A DNA stretch of 64,000 nt. Source: Dictyostelium discoideum (taxonomy: Eukaryota). The stretch is from contig CM000154.2 in assembly GCA_000004695.1 (NCBI GenBank), forward strand, positions 4,128,001-4,192,000, read 5' to 3'. Shown here piece after piece: positions 4,301 through 41,617 of this stretch. The first letter of the stretch is position 1, and every line of letters begins with the position of its first letter. The position numbers and the translations under genes are program-made. The notes beneath the pieces are model-generated. The model was given only the letters and a program-made list of their open reading frames with translations, did not search any database and was not told the origin of the DNA.

Positions 4301-4916
4301 ATATAGATTTTCGATATCCCAAAGTATTGATGATAATGGTTGTACACCTAAATGATCACAAACTGATCGATATGTAAGATTGAATGATCCACAACCTTGA
4401 ATATCTTTAAATGAGGTGGCTTGAAATATCGATGGTATTCTACTAGCTGGTGTAATGTTAAAAATAATGGTTTTACCAATTTTAATACCAGGAAATGTTG
4501 ACATTAATGTACCATACAATGTCTTCAATACCTCTGATGCATCTAAATTCATCTTCATAACATTTTGATTCTTAAATTTTATTGTAACATCATTCTCTGA
4601 TTGACTTGCTATCTCTGTAATTTCTAAATAATGATGTTCTGCTGATAACTAGTTATATAAATATATAAAAAAAAATAAAATAAAAAAACTATTATTATTA
4701 TCTATTGTTTTGAAAAAGTAAATGAATATGAATAACTGAGTGTACACTTACTTTTCCTTTTGAATCTGTAAATAAAAATATTCTATTACTTGATAAAATT
4801 AACGTTTTAATCTCTAACTTCTTTTTTTTTTCATTTAATATTGTAACTTTTGTAATTAATTTACCCTCTTCTTTTTTATTTGTTAAAATTGATTCAATAG
4901 TTTCTAAAGAAAACAA
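1372..4916 (-). CDS. RhoGAP-domain protein with an N-terminal PH-like module and ribonuclease-inhibitor-type leucine-rich repeats (~1107 aa)
   Basis: Three exons on the minus strand: 4916..4752, 4648..3995 and 3876..1372. Both donors are GTAAGT (plus-strand acttac at 4746-4751 and 3989-3994); the acceptors are AG at 4650/4649 and 3878/3877; introns are 103 and 118 nt. Phases are consistent (exon 1 is 55 codons, exon 2 is 218 codons). RhoGAP signature: GIFRTCASATALKKIKTRFEAGEDIDL...VAGVLKSYFRELPNPIFP...MMSPENIAICWAPTFFRS. LRR units such as LDISGNGVGDSGALAVSKIL. The N-terminal MFSLETIESILTNKKEEGKL...RIFLFTDSKGK is PH-like, as in CARMIL-type proteins. Confidence 0.85.
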
Positions 4917-6019
4917 AAAAAAAAAACAAATTAATAAAAGAAGATAATTTAAAAATTTTTTAAAAAATTTTTAAAAAATAATTGTTCAGAATGTTTTTGT
5001 TTTTTTTTATTATTGTATTTTATTTATTTTTTATAATTACTTTTTTCAACTTGTGATAGGGAAACAGGTGTTGTCATTGTTTTATTTGCACTTTTTTCTT
5101 TTTGTTTTTTTTTTTTGTTTTTGTTTTTTTTTGTAATAATAAATAAATAATAAATAAATAAATAAATAAATAAATAATGAATAAATAAAATACAATATTA
5201 ATAAATACAAGATTAATAAATAAATATTATGTTACAGGTTTTTTTTTTTTTTTTATTTTTTTTTTTTTTTTATTTTTTCAAATGGTTATTGATAATTATT
5301 TGAATTAATTTTTTTTTTTAAAATCAATTTTTTTTTTTTTTATTTTTTTTTAATTTTATTTTTTTTTTTTATTTTATTTTATTTTTTTAAATTAATTTTC
5401 AAAAAAAAAAATTTTTTTTGGGGGAGCGCTTCTTGATTATTATCATAAAAATGGTTTAAAAAATATTTCTTTATTTTGAAAAATGTTTTTTGACCTTATA
5501 TTAATTGTGTTTTTTTTGAAAATTGTGTGAATATTTTTGGTGTTGTGTAAACTTTTTTAATTAATTTTTTATTTTTTATTTTATTTTTATTTTTTTTTTT
5601 TTGTCAAAGCATTTTTATTTTTGGGGGGTTTAAGATTATATCTTTTTTTATATCGAAAAAAAAAAAAAAAAATTGTGATCATAAAATCAATGGTTTGAAA
5701 AAATTTAATTATTTTTTTATTTTTTTTTATTTTTAAATTATAAAGTTGCTTTTACCAATGTTGATTGAAGAAATTATCATTGTAATTATTTTATTTTTTT
5801 TAAATGATGAATATATGAATTTAAATCAGTTAACCAAAAAGGGTATTTTTTTTTTTTATTTTCACGACGAAATTTTAACAAAAAATAAAAATTCAGGTCG
5901 GAAAATTTATTGAATATTTGGGATTTTTTTTTTGTTTTATCGTATTTTTTTTTTATTTTTTTTTATTTTTTTTTTGTTTTTCTACCCAAAATACGAGAAA
6001 TTTTTACCAAAAAAAAAAA

Positions 6020-7372
<1,353 letters not shown>

Positions 7373-7497
7373 TAGTTAAATAAAGTTAAAAAGTTATATA
7401 AAACTAAATTCAAAAATTTCTTTTTTTTATTTAATAAATGTGTGTATTTATTTGAAGCACAACATTTTTTATTAAAGTTTATAAATTTTTTTTTTTT

Positions 7498-10443
7498 TTA
7501 CTCATCATTTCCACCATTTTCTTCTTGGTTAGTGTTTTCATCACCACCTTGATTATTTTCATCACCACCTTGGTCATTTTCATTTCCTTGATTATTTTCA
7601 TCACCACCTTGATTATTTTCATCATTGCCTTGATTATTTTCACCACCATCTTGATCTTGGTTATTTTCATCACCACCTTGATTATTTTCATTATTGCCTT
7701 GATTATTTTCACTACCATCTTGATCTTGGTTATTTTCGCCACCATCTTGATTATTTTCACCACCATCTTGGTTATTTTCATCACCTTGATTATTTTCACC
7801 ATCACCATCTTGGTTATTTTCATCACCCCCTTGGTTATTTTGGTCACCATCTTGGTTATTTTCATCATTACCTTGATTATTTTCATCACCGTCTTGGTTA
7901 TTTTCATCACCGTCTTGGTTATTTTCATCACCATCTTGGTTATTATTTTCATCACCGTCTTGGTTATTATTTTCATCGTCACCTTGGTTATTATTTTCAT
8001 CACCCTCTTGGTTATTTTCATCACCGTCTTGGTTTTGTTCACCATCTTGGTTATTATTTTCATCACCATCTTGATTGTTTTCACCATCTTGATTATTTTC
8101 ACCACCATCTTGATTATTATTTTCATCACCATCTTGATTGTTTTCACCACCATCTTGATTATTTTCACCACCATCTTGATTATTATTTTCATCACCATCT
8201 TGATTATTATTTTCATCACCATCTTGATTGTTTTCACCACCATCTTGGTTATTTTCATCACCGTCTTGGTTTTGTTCACCATCTTGGTTATTATTTTCAT
8301 CACCATCTTGATTGTTTTCACCATCTTGATTATTTTCTCCATCTTGATTGTTTTCATCACCATCTTGGTTATTTTCACCATCTTGATTGTTTTCATCAAC
8401 ATCTTGGTTATTTTCATCACCTTGGTTATTTTCACCACCATCTTGGTTATCTTCACCACCATCTTGGTTATCTTCACCACCATCTTGGTTATCTTCACCA
8501 CCTTCTTGATTATTTTCACCACCATCTTGGTTATCTTCACCACCATCTTGGTTATTTTCACCACCATCTTGGTTATTTTCACCACCATCTTGGTTATTTT
8601 CACCATCTTGATTGTTTTCACCATCTTGATTATTTTCACCACCATCTTGGTTATTTTCGCCATTTTGATTATTTTCACCATCTTGATTGTTTTCACCACC
8701 ATCTTGGTTATTTTCATCACCATCTTGGTTGTTTTCACCACCATCTTGATTATTTTCACCACTATCTTGATTATTTTCACCACTATCTTGGTTGTTTTCA
8801 TCACCATCTTGATTGTTTTCACCACCATCTTGGTTATTTTCACCATCTTGGTTATTTTCACCATCATCTTGATTATTTTCACCACCATCTTGATTATTTT
8901 CACCACCATCTTGTTTATTTTCACCATCATCTTGATTGTTTTCACCACCATCTTGGTTATTTTCGCCATCTTGATTATTTTCACCACCATCTTGATTATT
9001 TTCACCACCATCTTGATTATTTTCACCATCTCGATTGTTTTCNNNNNNNNNNNNNNNNNNNNNNNNNNNNNNNNNNNNNNNNNNNNNNNNNNNNNNNNNN
9101 NNNNNNNNNNNNNNNNNNNNNNNNNNNNNNNNNNNNNNNNNNTCTTGGTTGTTTTCTCCATCTTGGTTGTTTTCTCCATCTTGATTATTTTCACCACCAT
9201 CTTGGTTATTTTCACCACCATCTTGGTTGTTTTCACCACCATCTTGATTATTTTCACCACCATCTTGGTTATTTTCACCACCATCTTGATTATTTTCACC
9301 ACCATCTTGATTATTTTCACCACTATCTTGGTTGTTTTCACCACCATCTTGGTTGTTTTCACCGTCTTGGTTATTTCCATGACCATCTTGGTTGTTTTCA
9401 CCACCATCTTGGTTGTTTTCACCACCATCTTGATTATTTTGATCACCTTGATTATTTTCACCACCTTGATTGTTTTCATCACCTTGATTATTTTCACCAC
9501 CTTGATTGTTTTCATCACCATTTTGATTGTTTTCACCATCTTGGTTATTTTCACCACCTTGATTATTTTCACCACCTTGATTGTTTTCATCCCTATTTTG
9601 ATTTTTGTTTTGGTCATCACCAGCTTGATTATTATTATTATTATTATTACTTTGATTATTATTTTCATCTTTTTTTGGTTCTTGTTTTTTAGGAATAATA
9701 CCAACTGATTGTGCAAAATTACTAATACCTGATCCGACAGCTTCAACACCCTCGTCAGCCAATTTACCACTTCCACCTCCAATTTTTTCCATTGTATCTG
9801 AGAAAATGGCACCTCCTGTAACAATCCTAATAGGGTTAAGAGCATCTGCAACTTTTCCACTTCCACCTCCCACTGTTTCAAAAATACCTGGTTTATCATT
9901 GGTATTGGTTGATGTTTTGGTTGGTGTTGTTGTGGAAGTGGTGGTAGTAGTAGTTGTTGGTTTTGGTGTTGTAGTTGTAGTTGTAGTTGTAGTTGGTGTT
10001 GGTGTTGGTGTTGGTGTTGGTGTTGGTGTTGGTGTTGGTGTTGGTGTTGCTTGAGGATCACCTGGGTTTGAACCAAATTGCTTTCTCTCATCATCAGTTA
10101 CTATAAATTTTTTATAATTATTATTTTTATTATTATTATTAGTAAATCTGATATATTTTGGATTATAATTATTATTTTTTAAAATATATTATAAAAATAC
10201 AAACATTTATAGGTATTATAAAACTTATCATCATTTGAAATTTTATCTTCAGTTTGTTTAATTTCTTTTTGAATATTTTCCAATTCGGCATTTCTCAAAT
10301 TTTCTTTTACACTTGGAACAATAGCGTTAAATACCGAACCAACCAAACCTCCAGAATTACTATGCCCATGATTTTTAACATCATCATATTTTTTCTTTAA
10401 TTCTGCAATTTTTTTATTATCCTCATCATCTAATATTATTAAA

Positions 10444-10510
<67 letters not shown>

Positions 10511-10566
10511 TTATTATTATTTTTTTATTTTTTTATTTTTTATTTTTTTTTAAAAAAAAAAAAAAA

Positions 10567-10601
<35 letters not shown>

Positions 10602-11131
10602 ATATACGTACGATTTGGTGGCAAACCTCCATTTGCAGCAGTTTTAGTAAAACCAAGAACTTCTTTAATATCTTCCATTTTTTTTTTATTCTCTTCTATT
10701 GTGTCTTCATCAACATGTTTAGGATTATGAATTATATCATTTTCCTCGAAGGGTTTCATAACTTCTTTGAATTCTTTAACATTTTTTTCCAAATTTTTAT
10801 TTTCTTCAACAAGTCTTTTATATTCAGAGATATCACCACTTTGTCTTTTTTCAATATCAGTTATTCTTGAATTTGTTTTATCCAATAAATTTTGAAATAT
10901 TTTTTTTTCATTGTCAGTTTTTGCATTTTTGACTGAATTTGAATAAGTTTGTTTTTCATTGGTCAATCCAATCATTTCTTTTCTATCCTTTTGATTTTGA
11001 ACCATTCTATCATTTCTATCTTTAGTTTCTTTTTGTCTTTTTTCTTGTATTTCTCTATTTTTATTATTTTCTTCTATGGCATGTGTAACTGAAGGAACAA
11101 TTGCTTTTGCAACTGCATCAAATATTGTCAT
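7498..11131 (-). CDS. Asn/Gln/Asp/Glu-rich tandem-repeat protein: coiled-coil-like charged N-terminus, Thr/Pro linker, two GGGSGK(V/L)AD motifs, then ~100 GGENNQD heptads
   Basis: Exon 1 is 11131..10612 (MTIFDAVAKAIVPSVTHAIEENNKNREIQEKRQKETKDR...GGLPPN), ending with donor GTACGT. A probable internal exon ~10429..10205 is in frame and paralogous to exon 1 (…SVFNAIVPSVKENLRNAELENIQKEIKQTEDKISNDDKFYNTYK). A large 3' exon starts after the AG at 10102/10101 (…TDDERKQFGSNPGDPQATPTPTPTP…TTTTTT…PGIFETVGGGSGKVADALNPIRIVTGGAIFSDTMEKIGGGSGKLADEG…), then the 21-bp repeat array continues to the stop at 7498. The frame is continuous with ORF 7498..9873, which begins at an alternative (GTG) codon, so the ORF extends further 5'. 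The K-rich overlapping frame 7479..10094 is rejected. Splice phases are consistent with or without the internal exon. Confidence 0.6.
7540..9620. repeat. near-perfect 21-bp tandem repeat array, ~95-100 units of consensus (minus strand) GGTGGTGAAAATAACCAAGAT encoding the GGENNQD heptad
   Basis: Plus-strand unit ttttcaccaccatcttggtta repeated head-to-tail with only point variants (caccatc/caccacc, ggtt/gatt). All three frames on both strands are open across it, which is why the tool reports the 7479..10094, 7498..9873 and 7525..9708 ORFs. Confidence 0.9.
9043..9142. other. assembly gap (100 N) inside the 21-bp repeat array
   Basis: Run of exactly 100 n characters flanked by repeat units; the true number of repeat units is unknown. 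Confidence 0.95.
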
Positions 11132-11229
11132 TTTTTAATAAAATAATAAAATAATAAGAATAGATTATTTATTAAAGTAATACAATTATTAACTTTAAAA
11201 TAACTTTTTTTTTTTTTATTTTATTTTAT

Positions 11230-11266
<37 letters not shown>

Positions 11267-11289
11267 ATAATAATAATAATAATTTAAAA

Positions 11290-11480
11290 TTAAAACTAAA
11301 TAAATTTTATATACTCTTTAATAATTAATATTGGAAGGTTTAATTTAAAAATAAATAAACCTTTCATATCTCCTCAGTTTTTTATAAAAATAACAACAAT
11401 AAAAATTGAGATAGCACAACCCAAAATTTATCTGTTTTGAAACTTTTTTTTAAAAAAAAAAAATAATATCATCATAATTG
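11290..11480. repeat. dispersed duplicated segment, copy 1 (about 80% identical to 12410..12600)
   Basis: aattaatattggaaggtttaatttaaaaataaataaacctttcatatctcctcagttttttataaaaataacaacaataaaaattgag…cccaaaatttatctgttttgaaac matches aattaatatttgaaggtttaaaataataaacctctcaaatcttctcatttctttataaaaataacaacaataaatttgttgg…ccccaaattaatctgttttggaac. Confidence 0.6.
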
Positions 11481-12127
11481 TTATCAAACTGTTTTTTTAT
11501 TTTATAATCTGTTGTTTTTTTTTTATATTAAAAATAAGAAATAAAAAATAAAAATAAAAAAAATATAAAAAAAAAATATATGGTGATATGATATAATTTT
11601 ATATACAAGTATAAACTATAAAAGGAAAAAGTAGAGGCTAAACTATTTAGTTGAAACTATTTAATAAATGCCATACAAATATTTGTGTTTTTTTTTATTT
11701 TTTATTTTTTTTATTTTTTATTTTTTTTATTTTTTATTTTTTTTATTTTTTTTTTCTTTTATCGATGAAAATATGAATTATGAATTTTAATTAGTTTACC
11801 AAAAAGGGAATTTTTTTTTTTTATTTTTTTTATATTTTAATGAAGAAAAAATTGGTATTTGTTTAAATAAACCATTGAATAAATAGGTTGTAGAAAAAAA
11901 TAAAAAAATATGAAAAAAAAAAAATCAACAACCAATAATTATAACCACAACCAATAACAACCAACAAACACAACAGCCGCCAATTGGGAAGAATAGTAAT
12001 GGTAATAGAAGTAATAGAAATAGCGTTAATTAGTAACAACAACTAATAATAACTACATCCAATAACAGCCAACAAACACAATAGCCGCCACTAATTCTAT
12101 TTACAATATAATCAAATCGAACAAACA

Positions 12128-12319
12128 ATGGAAATGTGTTGTTTTCACCACCATCTTGATTGTTCTCATCATCTTGGTTATTGTTTTCACCATCTTGATT
12201 GTTCTCATCATCTTGGTTATTTCTTCATCTTTATTATCTTCTTCATCTTGATTATTTTCATCACCATCTTGATTATCTTCACCACCATCTTGGTTATTTT
12301 CACAAAAAAAAAAAAATAA
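12128..12319 (-). pseudogene. decayed short copy (~8 units) of the GGENNQD 21-bp repeat
   Basis: ttttcaccaccatcttgattgttctcatcatcttggttattgttttcaccatcttgatt… in the same orientation as the main array. It sits next to a ~190-bp copy (12410..12600) of the segment found upstream of the parent gene (11290..11480). Confidence 0.5.
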
Positions 12320-12409
12320 ATAAAAAAAAATTAAAAAAATTAAAAAAAATAATAATAATTATTATAATTAAAGGTTAATAAAAAATGACAACAAATTAAA
12401 CTTTAACAT

Positions 12410-12600
12410 TCTTCAACAATTAATATTTGAAGGTTTAAAATAATAAACCTCTCAAATCTTCTCATTTCTTTATAAAAATAACAACAATAAATTTGTTGGC
12501 ATTAATTTTATAAAACCCCAAATTAATCTGTTTTGGAACTTTATTTTTTTTTTTTTATTTTTTATTTTTTTAATAATAATATAATTGTTATATGTGAAAA
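12410..12600. repeat. dispersed duplicated segment, copy 2
   Basis: See copy 1. It lies 5' (in minus orientation) of the repeat fragment at 12128..12319, reproducing the order promoter-like segment then repeats seen in the parent gene. Confidence 0.6.
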
Positions 12601-12983: not shown

Positions 12984-15263
<2,280 letters not shown>

Positions 15264-18072: not shown

Positions 18073-18271
18073 TTAAATATCGGAACCAAATGTATTTTCA
18101 CCGCTATAGCAAATATATAAAAAGCCATCTTCATCTTTATGAGCGTCATATATTGAGGATAAAAGTTGACTTGATGGTGGTAAGTTATTCTTATTTACAA
18201 ATAAAAAAATTGCCTTTTGTTCATTATGATCGGAATCATCTAAATGTTTTCTAATTTCCATTATAAAATTC

Positions 18272-18317
<46 letters not shown>

Positions 18318-18775
18318 TAATTGGTTAGTATCCTACTTTTTTTTTTTTTTTTTTCCTATTGTACATACAGTTATGACCATATTTGATGGTGCAAGGAATT
18401 TCTTTTTATTAATATCTGGTACATCACTATTTGCAGCTCTTTCGACAATAATCTAAAAAAAAAAAAAAATAATAAAAAAAAAAATAAATAATAAAAAACA
18501 ATTAGACTATTTTGAAATTTAAAATTTAAAAATAATTTATAAATAATAATAATAATACACATACTGGTAATCTATCCTTATATCTATTTCTAATTTTTGA
18601 TGATATTAATTTTCTTTTTTCTGTTACAATAAAAAAAAAAAAAAAAAAAATGTATTAGTGTGTGGGAAATTTTTTTGGGTGGATAATAATAATAATAATA
18701 AAAAAAAAAATAGAAAAAAAAAAAATACATACCAAGAGAGTACTCTTGTTTGAATGATTTTGAAAGTAAGGCCAT
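18073..18775 (-). CDS. atg8: Atg8/GABARAP/LC3-family ubiquitin-like autophagy protein (126 aa, 4 exons)
   Basis: Exons 18775..18733, 18620..18565, 18452..18369 and 18270..18073. Donors are GTATGT x3; acceptors are acAG, tttAG and aatAG. Spliced product: [126 protein letters not shown]. It aligns to the Atg8 consensus (FEKRK…RIPVIVEKAE…KYLVP…KAIFLFVN…LPP…[15 protein letters not shown]) with the scissile Gly followed by 3 residues. It is divergent, possibly the atg8b-type paralog. Confidence 0.9.
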
Positions 18776-31417: not shown

Positions 31418-34400
31418 TTATTTTTCTAATTGATTTGAAATCCAAATTGGCCATTCATCAAAATTAATATTTAAAGATTTAATTTCATCAAACATATCAA
31501 AAATTGAACGACTCATTGACCAACCCATTTGAGCACCTTGTAATTTAAGAGAACGAGCAATGGCAAAGAAATATTTCTCTCTAATTGTATCGATTTCCAA
31601 TTGAATTGATTGTAATTTTTCAGAAGATTCATTTGTTTTTTGATTAATATCAATGTGATATTGTTTATTCATTTCTTCAACTTGATATTCTAAATTATCG
31701 ATTTTACCAGATTTATCTTGTAATTCTTTTTCCAATTGTTTAATATTCAATTCTTGATTTGAGATAATATCCAATTGTTGTTGTAACTCTGAAGAGTCTG
31801 GTGATGTATTTAATGATTGAGTCTTTAATCTTTGATTCAATGTATCAATTTCATTCTTCCAACCATCATTCTCTTCTTCCAATTGTTGACATTTCAATTC
31901 ATTCTCTTGTTTATTCTTATTAAATTGTTGACATAAATCTTGTAATTGTTGTTCTAATTGTTGATTCTTTTCTTTTAATTCATTAATAATTTCTTCTTTT
32001 TCTACAATTAATTCATCATTTGAATTTGATAAATCTGGACTAATCATTTGTTGTTGTTGATGTAAAGATGATGAGGATGATCTTTCTTTATAAGATTCTC
32101 TTAATTGTAATTCAAGATCACTAATAATTTGTGATTTTTCTATTAATAAATTATCTTTTTCAGATAATTGATTTGTAATTAAATTTAATTGTGATTGAAT
32201 TTCATTAAAACCTTCTTTTGATAATGAATGAATTTCATTATCTTTTTCATTAATTTTTAAATGAGCATTTGTTAATCTTTCATTTAATGATTTAACTAAA
32301 TCTTTTTGATCATTAATTTCATTTAAACTTTCATCATAATCATTTATCATTTCATTTAATTCTTGTTCTTTTTCTGATAATTTCTCTGAAATTAATTTAA
32401 TCTCTTCTTTTAATTCATTAATATCATCATTTTTTTCATTAACTGTATCTTTTTCTAAATTTAATTCATTTTCTAAATCTTGTAATTTTTCTTTTAATTC
32501 TTCAATTAATTGTATATTTTCTTCATTATTATTATCATTATCATTATTGATATTTATTTCTTTTTCTTTTTCATTTAATTGATTATTAATATCAATTATT
32601 TTATTATTTTGATTTTCAATTTCTTGATCTTTTTCAATTAATTTTAATTGTAATTGATTTAATTCATTTTCTTTTTCACTAAATTGATGATTTACATCAA
32701 TGATTTGTGAATTTAAATCTAATATTTTATTATTTTTTTCTTCTAATTCTTGTTCTAAATTTTCAAATTTACTTTGTTGATCTTTTGATAATGATTCATT
32801 AGTTTGAATTAATTCATTAATTTTATTATCTTTTTCATTAATTTCATTTAGTTTTTCATTTAATTTTGACTGTAATTCATCTAGTGATGATTGATTATTT
32901 TCAATTAATTGATTAATTTCATTTTGTTTTTCATTTAAATTTGATTGTAATTCATCTAATGATGATTGATTATTTTCAGTTATTTGATCGATTTCATTTT
33001 GTTTTTCATTTAATTTTGATTGTAATTGATTAAGTTTTTCATCTCTTTCAATTATTGAAGATTCAAATGATTTTAATTGATTTTCTTTTTCTTGTAATTG
33101 ATCAGATAATTGAATTAATTTTGATTGTAATTCATCAGAAGATGATTCATTATTTTCAACTAATTCATTAATTTTATTTTGTTTTTCATTTAATTTTGAT
33201 TGTAATTCATTAATTTCTTGATGTTTTTCGTTTAATTTTGATTGTAATTCATCAGAGGATGATTGATTATTTTCAATTAATAGATTAATTTCATTTTGTT
33301 TTTCATTTAATTTTGATTGTAATTCATTAGAAGATGATTGATTATTTTCAATTAATTCATTAATTTCATTTTGTTTTTCATTTAATTTTGATTGTAATTC
33401 ATCCAATGAATCTTGATTTGATTTAGTTAATTGAACAAGTTTTTCTTGATTTTCAATGATTATTGAATCTAATGATTTTAATTTTTCATCTTTTTCTTTT
33501 AATTCATCAGATAATTGAATTAATTTTGATTGTAATTCATCAGAAGATGATTCATTATTTTCAATTAATTCATTTAATTTTGATTGTAATTCACTAATTT
33601 CTTGATGTTTTTCATTTAATTTTGATTGTAATTCATCAGATGATGATTGATTATTTTCAATTAATTGATTAATTTCATTTTGTTTTTCATTTAATTTCGA
33701 TTGTAATTCATCTAATGATGATTGATTATTTTCAATTAATTGATTAATATTAATTTCTTTTTCATTTAATTTCGATTGTAATTCATTGACTGTAACTTGA
33801 TTAGATTGAATTAATTGATCAAGTTTATCTTGATTTTCAATGATTGAAGTTTCTAATGATCTTACATTTTCATTTTTATCTTTTAATTCATCAGATAATT
33901 TAATTAATTTTGAATTTAATTCATCAGATGATGATTGATTATTTTCAATTAATTCATTAATTTTATTTTGATTTTCATTTAAATTTGATTGTAATTCATT
34001 GATTATAGATTGATTATTTAAAAGTTTTTCATCTTTTTCTTGTAATTGATCAGATAATTGAATTAATTTTGATTGTAATTCATCAGATGATGATTCATTA
34101 TTTTCAACTAATTCATTAATTTTATCTTGTTTTTCATTTAAATTATCTTGTAATTGATCAATTTTTTCATCTCTTTCAATGATTGAAGATTCTAATGATT
34201 TTAATTTTTCATCTTTTTCTTGTAATTTATCAGATAATTGATTTAATTTTAATTTTAATTCATCAGATGATGATTGATTATTTTCAATTAATTCATTAAT
34301 TTTATTTTGATTTTCATTTAAATTTGATTGTAATTCATTGATTACAGATTGATTATTTAAAAGTTTTTCATCTTTTTCTTGTAATTCATCAGATAATTGA

Positions 34401-36037
34401 TTTAATTTTAATTTTAATTCATCAGATGATGATTCATTATTTTCAATTAATTGATTAAGTTGATTATCCTTTGAAATTAATTGATTTTCTTTTTCATTTA
34501 ATTTATTATTAATTTCTAAAATTTGATTTTCTTTATCTTGTAATTTATTTGATAATTGATTAATATCATTTAATTTTTCAAGTAATTCATTAGAGATATC
34601 ATTTAATTTTAATTGTAATTGGTCAGATGATGAAGTACTATTTTCAATTTCTTTTTGTTTATCAATTGATTGTTTTGATAATTCTTGAATTTTATTATCT
34701 TTTTCATTTAATTGATTAGAAATTTTTGAAATATTATCATTTAATTCTAAAATCATTTGATTGTTTTTATTATTATCAATTTCATGTTGTTGATTTAATT
34801 GAGTTAATTGATTATCTTTTAATTGAATTTCTTTAAGTTTATCATCTACTATTGATTTTAAAGATTGAATTTCATTATTTACCAATTGTAATTTCGTTGA
34901 GAATTGATTTTTATCATTTTCTAAATCCAATTGAGATTGTTGTAATGATTGTTGAAATGATTTAACTTGTGATAAACTTTGTTGATTCATTTCATTTAAT
35001 TCATTTTCTTTATCTTGAATTTCCAATTGATATTGATTAATTCTTTTTTCAAATTGTTGTTTTTGTGTATCGATTAATGATTGTAAATCATTGTTTTCAT
35101 CTTTAATTTCATTTAATGATTCTTGTAATCTTTTGATATTATCCTCTAACAATTGATTAACTTTTGAATCATTTGTTGAATTTAAATTCTCAATCAATTG
35201 AATCTCTTTGATTTTTTCAGTTAATTTTAAAATTTCATTATCTTTTTTAGTTTGTTCAATCTCTGAACGATGTTCAATATCAACCAATTTCTCCACTTGT
35301 TTCTCCAATGATTTCATTGACTCGTCTTTACTTGATAGTTGTAGAGTTAGTGATTTAATTTCTTGTTCTTTTTTAGTGGTTTCTTGAATTTCAATGGTTC
35401 TTTGTTCTTCAAATTTCTTTTCTTTCTCTTGGTATCTTTTTTCAGACTCTTGATGTTTCTCATTCAAATGTTTGATTTTCTCACGAAGTTTTATTATATC
35501 ATTATCTTTGGTTTTAATTAACCCATCCAATACTTGAACTTGACTTGAATTGATTTCATGATACTTAATTGCATCTTTTATACCTTCAATCCAATAGTTT
35601 ATCTCTGTATCATTTTTAGCTCTTAATATATAAACTCTTCCTGGTACTTCAACATGAAATACAAAATTACCATCAACTTTCTTTATTGATGTAACTTGAC
35701 GAATATCTAAATATCCCAATGATAATGCTGTTGAACTTTGTGTTGATGAACTAAAACTTACATCTTTTGGTGGTGGACTTTCAAAATAATGTAAATCAAA
35801 TCCATTTTTTGCTAATGAAAAATATCTATTTTTATATGATTTATAAATTCCTTTTTCCTTTTTTTTTTTTTATTAATTATTTTGTTGGAAAAATAAAATA
35901 AAAAAAATTGGGTGTTGGTGTGGTTGGGAGAAAAAAAAAGTGAAAAAAAAAAAGTAAAAAAAAAAAAAAAGTAAAATAGTATTTTATTTTATACTCACTC
36001 CCTGTTTTTCGAGGTATCCTTCTAAAAGAATTGACAT
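31418..36037 (-). CDS. PH-domain protein with a >1400-aa Ser/Asn/Gln/Glu-rich coiled-coil tandem-repeat rod (~1492 aa, 2 exons)
   Basis: Exon 1 is 36037..35999 (MSILLEGYLEKQG) with donor GTGAGT. A 141-nt intron, AG at 35859/35858. Exon 2 (35857..31418) continues EKGIYKSYKNRYFSLAKNGFDLHYFESPPPKD…VYILRAKNDTEINYWIEGIKDAI, a canonical PH domain. After it come long-period repeats (NQSSSDELQSKLNEKQNEINELIENN…) that are nearly identical at the DNA level. Confidence 0.8.
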
Positions 36038-36698: not shown

Positions 36699-38145
36699 TT
36701 AATTTAATATTTGTACAGATTTATCTAATTTACAAACATCTAAAGATGATGGTTCAATATTTCTATTTAAAATAATTGTTTGAATTGTTTTTGGTATTGA
36801 TCCTTCAAATAGTTGTGTATTTACACAGCCTAAAATTAATATCCTTATGGAATTTGGAATGATTCCTGGTGTTAGTGCTTGATTAAATCCATTAAAGATA
36901 CACAAGTTGGTTACAGAATTTGGTATTGAATTCACTAATAATGCTTGTTTAATTCCTCCCAAATGTAAATCGCACACTCCATTTGTAATTATACCTGGTG
37001 ATATTATTTGATTGAAACCATCATTGAAATATAATGAATGAATCGATTTAGGAATAGAACCCTCAATCAATAAATCATTAACTTGTTTGAATTCTAATGA
37101 TTTAACACCCTCTGGTATAATACCTGCTGTAAGTAATTGGTTAAAGCCTTTATAAAAGTTTATTTTTGAAACTGTTTTTGGTATTGACCCAATTGCTAAT
37201 GGTTTTGTTATTTCCTGTAATGTTACAATTTCAACACTTTTTGGAATAATACCTGGCGTTAATGTTTGAGAGAATCCATCTTTTAGAATCAATTGTTTTA
37301 CTGACTCTGGAATTGATCCAATGTTTAGTTCACTTTTAATATTATGTAATGTTAAGTATTGCACACCTCCTGTGGGTGTATATGGCAATATATCTTCATT
37401 TTTTACCTGACAGGAAGGAATAATACCAGGTTCTAATGATTGATTAAATCCATCATGAAGTATTAAACTTGAAATAGTTGATGGTATTGATCCAACTACT
37501 AATGGTGTTTTAATATCACATATTTCTAAATATTTAATACCAAGTGGTAATACACCTGGTTCTAAACTTTCTTTAAATCCATCTAATAACATAACACTCT
37601 TTAAATTAGGTTCTGATTTAAATTTTAATAAACTACCACAATCTTCTCCGAATGCAATTGCTTCTTTATCTTTATAGTTTGAAAATTCACATTTCTCTGA
37701 ATGTATATAATATTTCCCATACCTACCTATTTTTATAAAAATTTAATATCTATACCATAATAATTACATTTTTTTAATTTCAATTTAAACACTTACTCCT
37801 TATAAATTTAAAATTATTTTCATCGAATTCAATGTTTAGTTTTTTATTTTTATTGTTCTCTATAATATTATCAAATTTATAAATTAATTTTAAAATATTT
37901 TTAATATCATCTATTTTTTGATTATTGAATAGTATTGATTGATTTTTATATTCTTTTAATTTATTTATATTATCAAAATTATTATTATTATTTACTATTA
38001 TTGATGATTGTTGATATTTTTTAATTAATTGATAAATTTCTTCATTTTCAAGCCAGTTATAAATTTGATTTTCATCATAATTTTGTAAGTCAGGATCATT
38101 GAGATTATCCAATTTATAACTTATTGATTCTATATTAATACCCCA

Positions 38146-38198
<53 letters not shown>

Positions 38199-38676
38199 TA
38201 TTATTGTTATTATCATTATCATTATTATTTTTGATTGATGAATTAATAGTAGTATTAATTGATGTATTTTGATCAAATGTTGTTTTTAATTGCTTTTCAA
38301 TATCTAATTGAATAATTTGAAGTATTTTATGAAATTTATTAAATTCATCTGTTATTAAGTTTTTATTATTTTCATATTGTTGTTTTATTTCATTATAAAT
38401 ATTTTCAGATTCATTGATTATTTGTTTATCATTTTCTATTGTTTCTTTTAATTTTGGAATGATATCATTTTTAAATAAATTCATCATTTTGAGAATATTT
38501 GATGTTTCCATTGAATCTATAGAATTTGTTTTATGACCATAGTGTTCACCATCTTGAGAAATACATTGATTACAACATGGAATTAATTTACAATCCAAAC
38601 ATAAAAGTTTTATTTTTTTATTTGTATGATGTGTACATTTGTTATTGTTACTATCTAATATTATATCATTATTCAT
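36699..38676 (-). CDS. B-box zinc-finger + coiled-coil + FNIP-repeat protein, paralog A (~635 aa, 2 exons)
   Basis: Exon 1 is 38676..37797 (B-box [36 protein letters not shown], then a coiled coil with poly-N). Donor GTAAGT (plus acttac 37791-37796), a 70-nt intron, AG at 37728/37727. Exon 2 (37726..36699) is phase-1 compatible (…[19 protein letters not shown]…[16 protein letters not shown]…) and carries FNIP repeats ([27 protein letters not shown]…). Confidence 0.8.

Positions 38677-39404: not shown

Positions 39405-41617
<2,213 letters not shown>

Follow-up and report, generated by a model that had tools for sequence, protein, structure and literature searches.

What does a 2.45 kb array of 21-bp repeats, broken in the reference assembly by a run of Ns, encode in Dictyostelium discoideum AX4, and is it a recent expansion or an old part of a gene? 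The array lies in a 64,000-nucleotide stretch of chromosome 5 (NCBI GenBank assembly GCA_000004695.1, contig CM000154.2, positions 4,128,001 to 4,192,000 of the forward strand), called the window below, which supplies all coordinates unless another locus is named; it is about 20% G+C, with AAT and poly-A/T runs. An earlier note, made from these letters alone, had proposed a minus-strand gene at 7498-11131 ending in about 100 acidic, Asn- and Gln-rich heptads. The locus is very probably a genuine three-exon protein-coding gene with a coding minisatellite in its last exon, kept in frame by selection and likely to form a disordered polyanionic tail. Within this explanation, gene structure, reading frame, conservation, gap content and composition are matters of observation.

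The outer coordinates of the proposed gene proved to be exactly the stop and the start codon of a spliced gene. On the minus strand, the coding sequence (CDS) starts with the ATG at 11131..11129 and ends with the TAA at 7498-7500, its three exons being joined in frame across two short, AT-rich introns with GT...AG ends that were identified by a splice-site scan at 10611..10430 and 10204..10101. The open reading frame (ORF) 7498..9873, from which the earlier note had started, is present and is continuous, as claimed, with a non-repeat N-terminal part; it is the portion of exon 3 that is visible to a prokaryote-style ORF finder. The features of the locus are as follows (Tandem Repeats Finder is abbreviated TRF).

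10612..11131, minus strand: exon 1, 173 codons plus 1 nt, from ORF and translation, with the donor GTACGT at 10611
10430..10611, minus strand: intron 1, 182 bp, AT-rich, GTACGT...TAG
10205..10429, minus strand: exon 2, 75 codons, containing a second copy of the exon 1 motif
10101..10204, minus strand: intron 2, 104 bp, GTTTGT...TAG
7498..10100, minus strand: exon 3, consisting of linker, Gly-rich module, array and the TAA stop at 7498-7500
9901..10055, minus strand: (Thr-Pro)n / poly-Thr linker, including (TGTTGG)16 at 9955-10049, from TRF and translation
9676..9900, minus strand: Gly-rich module of 75 aa, with two half-sites GGGSGK[VL]AD
9143..9591, minus strand: 5' part of the coding 21-bp array, 23 units visible
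7501..9042, minus strand: 3' part of the coding array, 72 units visible, with the degenerate end ...NQEENGGNDE
9043..9142, no strand: 100-N assembly gap between the two array blocks, where the real sequence is 460 bp
12138..12304, minus strand: array stub of about 170 bp, of the ENNQDGG type, with a 1-nt deletion

The gap can be closed from a second assembly. Ten Dictyostelium genomes, including that of the laboratory strain AX2-214 (N50 5.3 Mb), have been assembled from Nanopore and Illumina reads (PNAS 2025, PMC12745789). Through an exact match of the adjacent 450-aa gene, the locus was found on CM142511.1 (4250561-4254554) of assembly GCA_054883475.1 (L006 below), which has no mismatch to the window over 6020-9042 and 9143-12500; these identical flanks make AX2 its likely source. 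There the 100 Ns are replaced by 460 bp, about 22 units in frame, and exon 3 is 2963 nt long, without N and in frame. A gene called independently in L006 has exactly the length of the gap-filled CDS, 3708 nt or 1235 aa. Around the gap lies the array's densest cluster of long exact repeats (64-89 bp, offset by 63-246 bp), and it is because this is the most internally repetitive part of the array that the original assembly failed there. The fill itself (window 9043-9142, L006 13024-13483) contains three copies of the unit pair DGGENNP-DGENNQ (CAA to CCA), which is absent from the rest of the array and marks a local higher-order duplication. Real units were thus hidden by the gap, as had been supposed, and the copy number that the earlier note had left unresolved can be given from a long-read assembly with identical flanks. 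For the AX4 reference this means a gene model completed by 460 bp and 22 units, with a true product of 1235 aa.

The array is real and far beyond chance, and both the 21-bp period and the 100-N run at 9043..9142 were found where they had been described, but "near-perfect", the term first applied to it, overstates its regularity. TRF reports period 21 at 7535-9028 (71.4 copies, 80% matches, 7% indels) and, in two overlapping rows, at 9143-9589 (about 20-23 copies, 83-85% matches), with indels in the window rows from 5% upward; on the ungapped L006 locus it reports 118.0 copies with 81% matches and 8% indels. The consensus GATGGTGGTGAAAATAATCAA occurs 65 times at 3 or fewer mismatches, always on the minus strand, against no occurrence in 100 shuffles, and only 14 copies of this 21-mer are exact. 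The figure of about 100 (D/E)NNQDGG units stands well enough, with 95 visible in the window and 118 in the ungapped array; that they are almost identical does not. Nominally of 21 bp, the units range in practice over 15-27 bp, always a multiple of 3: among the 95, 53 measure 21 bp, 25 measure 18 bp and 11 measure 24 bp, the few that remain having other lengths. The canonical DGGENNQ accounts for 27, in five DNA variants. The longest exact repeat inside the array is 95 bp, and identity of a unit to the next is 0.79-0.84 in the array centre versus 0.63-0.67 at the edges. Near-identity at third codon positions had also been claimed, and the reverse is found: variation between units is highest at the third positions of the two Asn codons, where AAT/AAC stands at 39:14 and 26:27. 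Codon use is dominated by GGT, GAA, GAT, CAA and AAT/AAC, all of them codons that D. discoideum prefers. On the present reading the array changes through replication slippage or unequal exchange, while being kept in frame, and limited in its amino-acid composition, by selection.

Relatives are few. In an exhaustive phmmer search with exon 1, one true relative was found among 1.84 billion representatives, the hypothetical protein ACTFIW_008623 [Dictyostelium discoideum], with 75% identity. Word-indexed searches gave three junk matches with the 390-aa N-terminus, where the Thr/Pro linker swamped the search, nothing with the N-terminus minus its linker, and nothing among 26 candidates with the Gly-rich module alone. 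The gene of this relative lies at a syntenic locus (L001 below), on a 2.5-Mb contig of assembly GCA_054859355.1, which is probably from one of the diverged tropical isolates of the PMC12745789 study; its flanking RhoGAP and 450-aa membrane protein are 97.6% and 92.9% identical to those of the window at the protein level, and synonymous divergence (dS) runs from about 0.05 to 0.19 across the segments compared, or about 0.1. At least three tandem copies of the gene lie there, one of them intact (L001 coordinates):

1-2551: copy 1, partial, changes frame
4916-9142: copy 2, intact, 1332 aa
10001-14146: copy 3, with +1 shifts in exon 1, in an A7/A8 run and inside the array

Splice sites homologous to those of the window give the 1332 aa of copy 2, which is again the length of an independent gene call. 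The frameshifts in copies 1 and 3 may represent real pseudogenes or Nanopore homopolymer errors. Arrays of 2.5-2.7 kb are carried by all three copies. Copies 2 and 3 share the exon architecture of the AX4 gene and end in ...EENGGDNEE* and ...EENGGNEE*, respectively, and the array of copy 2 has the same composition as the AX array. Exon 1 is 74-76% identical to two of the L001 copies, with a hypervariable stretch at residues 117-145, and exon 2 is 78-88% identical. The best conserved non-repeat part is the Gly-rich module, at 91-92% identity to copies 2 and 3 and a ratio of nonsynonymous to synonymous divergence (dN/dS) of 0.34. For exon 1 (10612-11131 versus L001 4916-5443), dN/dS in this small sample is about 1 (1.23 overall, 0.95 for residues 1-116); for exon 2, the Gly-rich module and the flanking genes it is 0.16-0.34, likewise from a small sample. 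The sequences bordering the stub at 12138-12304 (12069-12127 and 12317-12556) look like parts of the L001 locus, namely the promoter region (76-80% to copies 2 and 3) and a 3' flank (90% to copy 1). By these matches the AX4/AX2 lineage has apparently lost a second tandem paralogue, of which the stub would be the dead remnant.

Is the array translated, and in which frame? Openness alone proves nothing, since three of the six frames are open through it, simply because the unit cannot make stops in those frames, and both a Lys/Ile/Val/Met-rich ORF at 7479..10094 and a plus-strand Ile/Phe/Thr-rich ORF at 7525..9708 do exist. That either of these is the frame in use can nevertheless be set aside almost entirely. 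In the DGGENNQ frame, 56% of the unit differences from consensus are synonymous versus 17% expected, giving a pN/pS (nonsynonymous over synonymous differences) of 0.17, against 3.1 in the K-rich frame, 1.8 in the plus-strand LIIFTTI frame, and 3.0, 0.5 and 0.9 in the other three; units share ancestry, and the between-unit figure is an indication with an unambiguous direction rather than a formal test. Neither competing ORF is preceded by a conserved in-frame coding region, the K-rich one beginning within exon 3 in a frame other than that of the conserved TP linker and Gly-rich module, while the upstream region conserved in L001 reads into the ENNQDGG frame, which continues from those exons. 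As judged from these patterns, ENNQDGG is the coding frame, in agreement with the earlier note. It might still be argued that the array is non-coding or belongs to a pseudogene, its ORF being open merely for want of stops in the unit, and the frameshifted paralogues in L001 and the dead stub in the window speak for this; but it is extremely improbable, given a synonymous excess confined to one frame, indels that are all multiples of 3 over 2.45 kb (112 of 112 split units in the complete L006 array, of 15-42 bp) and likewise over 2.74 kb in L001 copy 2, a frame joined to conserved exons over two canonical introns, a conserved C-terminus and stop, and the detection of the probable protein (Q54G14, see below) by mass spectrometry.

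Much the same can be said of the array as an assembly artefact, whether a collapse or a false expansion of a shorter locus. The reference gap does fall exactly at the array, and the earlier note had itself named collapse of a much shorter locus as a danger; yet an independent Nanopore and Illumina assembly matches both flanks base for base and has the array longer, not shorter, and arrays about as long are present in a third assembly, that of another isolate, which leaves practically no room for an artefact. The claim that the array expanded very recently, or is kept near-identical by concerted evolution with a hypervariable copy number, has more in its favor: exact repeats of 50-95 bp occur, chiefly around the gap, the array centre is more homogeneous than its edges, and there are array-private unit variants such as EGDENNQ in L001 copy 3 and DSGENNQ or ENNP in AX. 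Overall, however, the mean pairwise identity of the 21-bp units in the AX array is only 0.884, with 7-8% indels, and arrays of like size (2.45 kb in AX, 2.55 and 2.74 kb in L001; TRF copy numbers 118.0 and 119.1 in the two lineages) are found on both sides of a split at dS of about 0.1. Identity between AX and L001 arrays is 0.856-0.882, and since identity within the array is no higher than that between arrays, the array is older than the lineage split and not strongly homogenised. Recent expansion is accordingly quite unlikely; by these comparisons the array is old and constrained, and only the local higher-order duplications point to continuing unequal exchange.

The complete protein of 1235 aa weighs 132.8 kDa and carries a net charge of -260; its grand average of hydropathy (GRAVY) is -2.24 and its Gly content 16.5%. 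The helical N-terminal region is itself neutral. Exon 1 (residues 1-173) was modelled by AlphaFold2 (AF2) as a long helical hairpin plus a third helix, with helices at 3-69, 73-130 and 142-159, at a mean predicted local distance difference test score (pLDDT) of 79, rising to 88-98 over residues 21-90. Its N-terminal motif, FDAVAKAIVPSV...E-N-x-x-N-x-E, recurs in exon 2 as F-x-A-IVPSV...E-N-x-x-N-x-E-x-E-N/K-x-QKE, an internal duplication with an E value of 1e-5; the two GGGSGK[VL]AD half-sites of the Gly-rich module form another (E 2e-5). Pfam has no family for any part of the protein at E up to 10, and the PDB sequence search returned only 6dlm (E 0.73) and 3ult (E 0.12), neither significant. 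In a Foldseek search of the PDB with the exon 1 model, the nearest structures were the Snf7 core (E 0.77), the PACSIN F-BAR domain (0.87) and Vipp1 (0.93), with TM scores of 0.3-0.5 and none at E of 0.001 or below; a membrane-remodelling hairpin of the ESCRT-III/PspA or BAR type thus gained no significant support for the N-terminus (E at least 0.77). A Walker A reading of GGGSGK was discarded, as the motif has no counterpart to the Gly that opens GxxxxGK and has V or L, instead of S/T, after its Lys. Nor does the N-terminus read as a signal peptide: the would-be h-region is charged, the motif recurs internally and the region is modelled as helix. No transmembrane segment is apparent in the 1235-aa protein, and the lack of an apparent signal peptide argues against a secreted matrix protein, one of the possibilities that had been named for it.

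The array tail makes up 817 residues, two thirds of the protein, and consists of N (30%), Q (15%), D (17%), E (15%) and G (22%). It contains 259 acidic, 2 basic, 1 hydrophobic and no aromatic residues, for a net charge of -257 and a GRAVY of -2.78, and offers no tryptic sites. When a 200-aa array segment was modelled by AF2 with other segments serving as a pseudo-alignment, the mean pLDDT was 41.6 and no secondary structure was seen. The description of the tail as an extremely acidic, Asn/Gln-rich disordered polymer is borne out by its 31.7% D+E, its 44.7% N+Q (with 21.7% Gly) and the unfolded AF2 model, and it is most likely, as far as modelling can indicate, an intrinsically disordered, highly hydrated polyanion.

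Two more specific readings of the tail have been considered. Prion-like composition strongly disfavours charged residues and favours aromatic ones. A Q/N-rich aggregation or phase-separation domain of that kind, as the earlier note had ventured, would suit the high N+Q content of the array and the Q/N-rich proteome of D. discoideum (PMC9234386), but nearly a third of the tail is acidic, only a single hydrophobic and no aromatic residue is found in 817, and AF2 gives the array no structure; the fit is poor, and this reading is very unlikely. Somewhat less so, though still unlikely, is that the roughly 118 units act as low-affinity Ca2+/Mg2+ sites, or fold on binding cations into a beta-roll or solenoid like those of RTX proteins or of ice-binding proteins with 7-residue repeats. 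The acidic charge density is very high, there are 74 matches in the array to the relaxed pattern [DE]-x-[DN]-x-[DN]-G, and the sole PDB sequence match of the array is the ice-recrystallisation-inhibition beta-roll of Lolium (3ult_A); its E of 0.12, however, is not significant and is driven by composition, no strict DxDxDG motif occurs, and a period of 7 with no hydrophobic core position in the unit, an AF2 pLDDT of 42 without strands and the absence of a Pfam match all count against it. The array does not follow the calcium-repeat canon (DxDxDG, or GGxGxDxUx with period 9), and the beta-solenoid fold suggested by the 3ult match was dropped when AF2 on the array segment gave it no support. Non-specific cation binding by such a polyanion is, by comparison, almost unavoidable.

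The gene can probably be given a name. Exact look-ups of neighboring ORFs identified DDB_G0290495 (Q54G09), CP55 (Q54G01) and DDB_G0290511 (Q54G00), and two further genes are DDB_G0290493 (Q54G10) and DDB_G0290489 (Q54G12). The autophagy gene atg8b (Q54G11), at 18085-18650 on the minus strand in four short exons, serves as a positional anchor; it is DDB_G0290491 (PMC8204557). Going down the window from 23.8 kb to 16.3 kb, one meets Q54G09 (at 23.1 kb), Q54G10, Q54G11 and Q54G12 in that order. Accessions being assigned one per gene, 12984-15263 would be Q54G13, and the gene described here, two past Q54G12, would be Q54G14, the Swiss-Prot "Uncharacterized protein DDB_G0290685"; the match is likely to be correct. 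We take the Q54G14 entry to be that of a compositionally extreme protein, and the name DDB_G0290685 has been attached, usually in the form "-like", to genes of beetles, ants and plants that are unrelated to it, as is typical of such a protein. Along the window, from 0290489 to 0290511, the DDB_G number of each gene is higher by 2 than the last, and 0290685 is out of series; DDB_G0290485 and DDB_G0290487, the numbers reached by continuing in steps of 2, were discarded as candidates, 0290485 being dlrA and 0290483 abcE1. The Swiss-Prot Q54G14 sequence is at version 2, which, with the out-of-series number, suggests that a gapped model was re-curated after the first annotation. Owing to the 100-N gap, about 153 residues are probably missing from the database sequence, if it is not altered in some other way.

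In the life-cycle proteome of PMC12821622 (tables S1, S4 and S5), Q54G14.2 is given no value at three stages (vegetative, aggregation and mound) and is quantified only at culmination and fruiting body, with 2.2e7 and 8.9e6, and 2.4e7 and 2.1e7, in the two biological duplicates. If the Q54G14 assignment holds, the protein would be made, and would be specific to terminal differentiation. A literature search found the repeat peptide in no paper; DDB_G0290685 is not in the main text of any Dictyostelium paper found, and it is absent from the supplements of Rosengarten 2015.

Several points weigh against reading the locus as a functional gene for a late, polyanionic protein. The link to Q54G14 stands on accession order, and exact look-ups of the full, N-terminal, C-terminal and X-containing AX4 models matched nothing. 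The comparison of loci covers two lineages, and in L001 copies 1 and 3 are frameshifted, by which it can be seen that paralogues decay readily and that array-bearing copies can persist unselected for a while. Homologues, Pfam families and solved structures offer no lead to what the protein does, and for the function of the tail it is composition that has to serve.

Within these limits a function can be sketched. The helical N-terminus would anchor or oligomerise the protein, and the tail would be an electrostatic brush that holds water and cations while the cells differentiate terminally. Its useful property would then be bulk, in the form of charge, binding of water and counter-ions and steric exclusion, with a specific fold unlikely to matter; this would explain how single units can drift in an array whose length and composition are kept. 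The late timing, taken with the likeness to the hydrophilins, would suggest a part in the maturation of spores or stalk. The proposal in full is that of a giant, fruiting-body-specific, polyanionic hydrophilin-like protein, tethered by its helical N-terminus and Gly-rich module, whose tail holds water and divalent cations or spaces macromolecules at dormancy, and which belongs to a young, fast-turnover tandem family limited to the D. discoideum clade; the family is taken as young and fast in turnover because of the exon 1 dN/dS of about 1, the decaying paralogues and the copy shrunk to a 170-bp stub. Taken as a whole, this is a tentative suggestion and a doubtful one. Apart from it, an uncharacterised Swiss-Prot protein that stands behind many "-like" annotations gains an architecture, a frame and an evolutionary context, and the locus supplies a clean example of a long coding minisatellite, apparently old and held by selection, in a tandem family seen at several stages of decay. 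If late expression and a hydrated tail do reflect spore or stalk maturation, it would offer a tractable entry point, knock-outs being feasible in AX2, to the way in which Dictyostelium puts its extreme low-complexity proteome to use and does not just tolerate it.

Some other features of the window deserve mention. The adjacent 450-aa gene (6020..7372), which encodes a multi-pass membrane protein, is convergent with the array gene, their stops lying 125 bp apart, and near its C-terminus it has about 44 Asn encoded by (AAT)44 at 7190-7322 on the plus strand (98% purity). On the minus strand at 31418-35719 is a 1433-aa ORF with an N-terminal PH-like segment followed by many coiled-coil repeats of about 45 residues (...NELIENNQSSSDELQSKLNEKQNEI...), another long coding tandem repeat in the window. 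Also on the minus strand, 36699-38676 and 39405-41617 constitute a tandem duplication of a gene pair or two-exon gene, in clearly diverged copies; the duplicated parts are a B-box-like Cys/His N-terminal region with long poly-Asn and FNIP-type repeats (IPxxVxxLxFxxGFNQxL).

Among known systems, the gene is a lineage-restricted, uncharacterised member of a well-known kind, the Dictyostelium coding tandem repeats. Like the poly-Asn and poly-Gln tracts treated by Eichinger et al. 2005 (via PMC9234386) and Scala et al. 2012 (PMC3460934), the array is in frame, rich in N and Q, and tolerated in the proteome, and as in those repeats its variation is mostly synonymous, pointing to selection on the encoded residue (PMC9234386). 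It differs from the triplet homopolymers in being a 21-bp minisatellite that encodes a heptapeptide with two or three acidic residues over 2.45 kb. With the coding minisatellites of the fungal FLO and ALS genes it shares long in-frame repeats in the terminal exon, unequal recombination, and tandem families with pseudogenised members. The FLO/ALS cell-wall proteins are secreted, Ser/Thr-rich, glycosylated adhesins, whereas here there is no apparent signal peptide and the repeat is acidic. A long, D/E-rich disordered polyanion on a small folded or oligomerising part is known from prothymosin-alpha, nucleoplasmin and nucleolin, and a polyanion is likewise joined to a folded part in the present protein; there is no homology to these acidic tails, and its acidic residues recur at regular intervals in a heptad, with N, Q and G between them. 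The hydrophilins, finally, were reportedly delimited by Garay-Arroyo et al. in 2000 by a Gly content above 6% and high hydrophilicity; the values here are 16.5% Gly and a GRAVY of -2.24 for the whole protein, and 21.7% and -2.78 for the array. High Gly, extreme hydrophilicity and predicted disorder are thus common to this protein and to the hydrophilins and proteins of the late embryogenesis abundant (LEA) type, such as yeast Hsp12 (PMC6054528); accumulation on the formation of dormant, desiccation-resistant structures may be a further likeness, if the protein is Q54G14. It lacks an LEA or Pfam motif, is much larger (133 kDa), and is purely polyanionic instead of mixed in charge; if the proposed role is correct, it would be a lineage-specific, independently evolved solution to protection in desiccation or dormancy.

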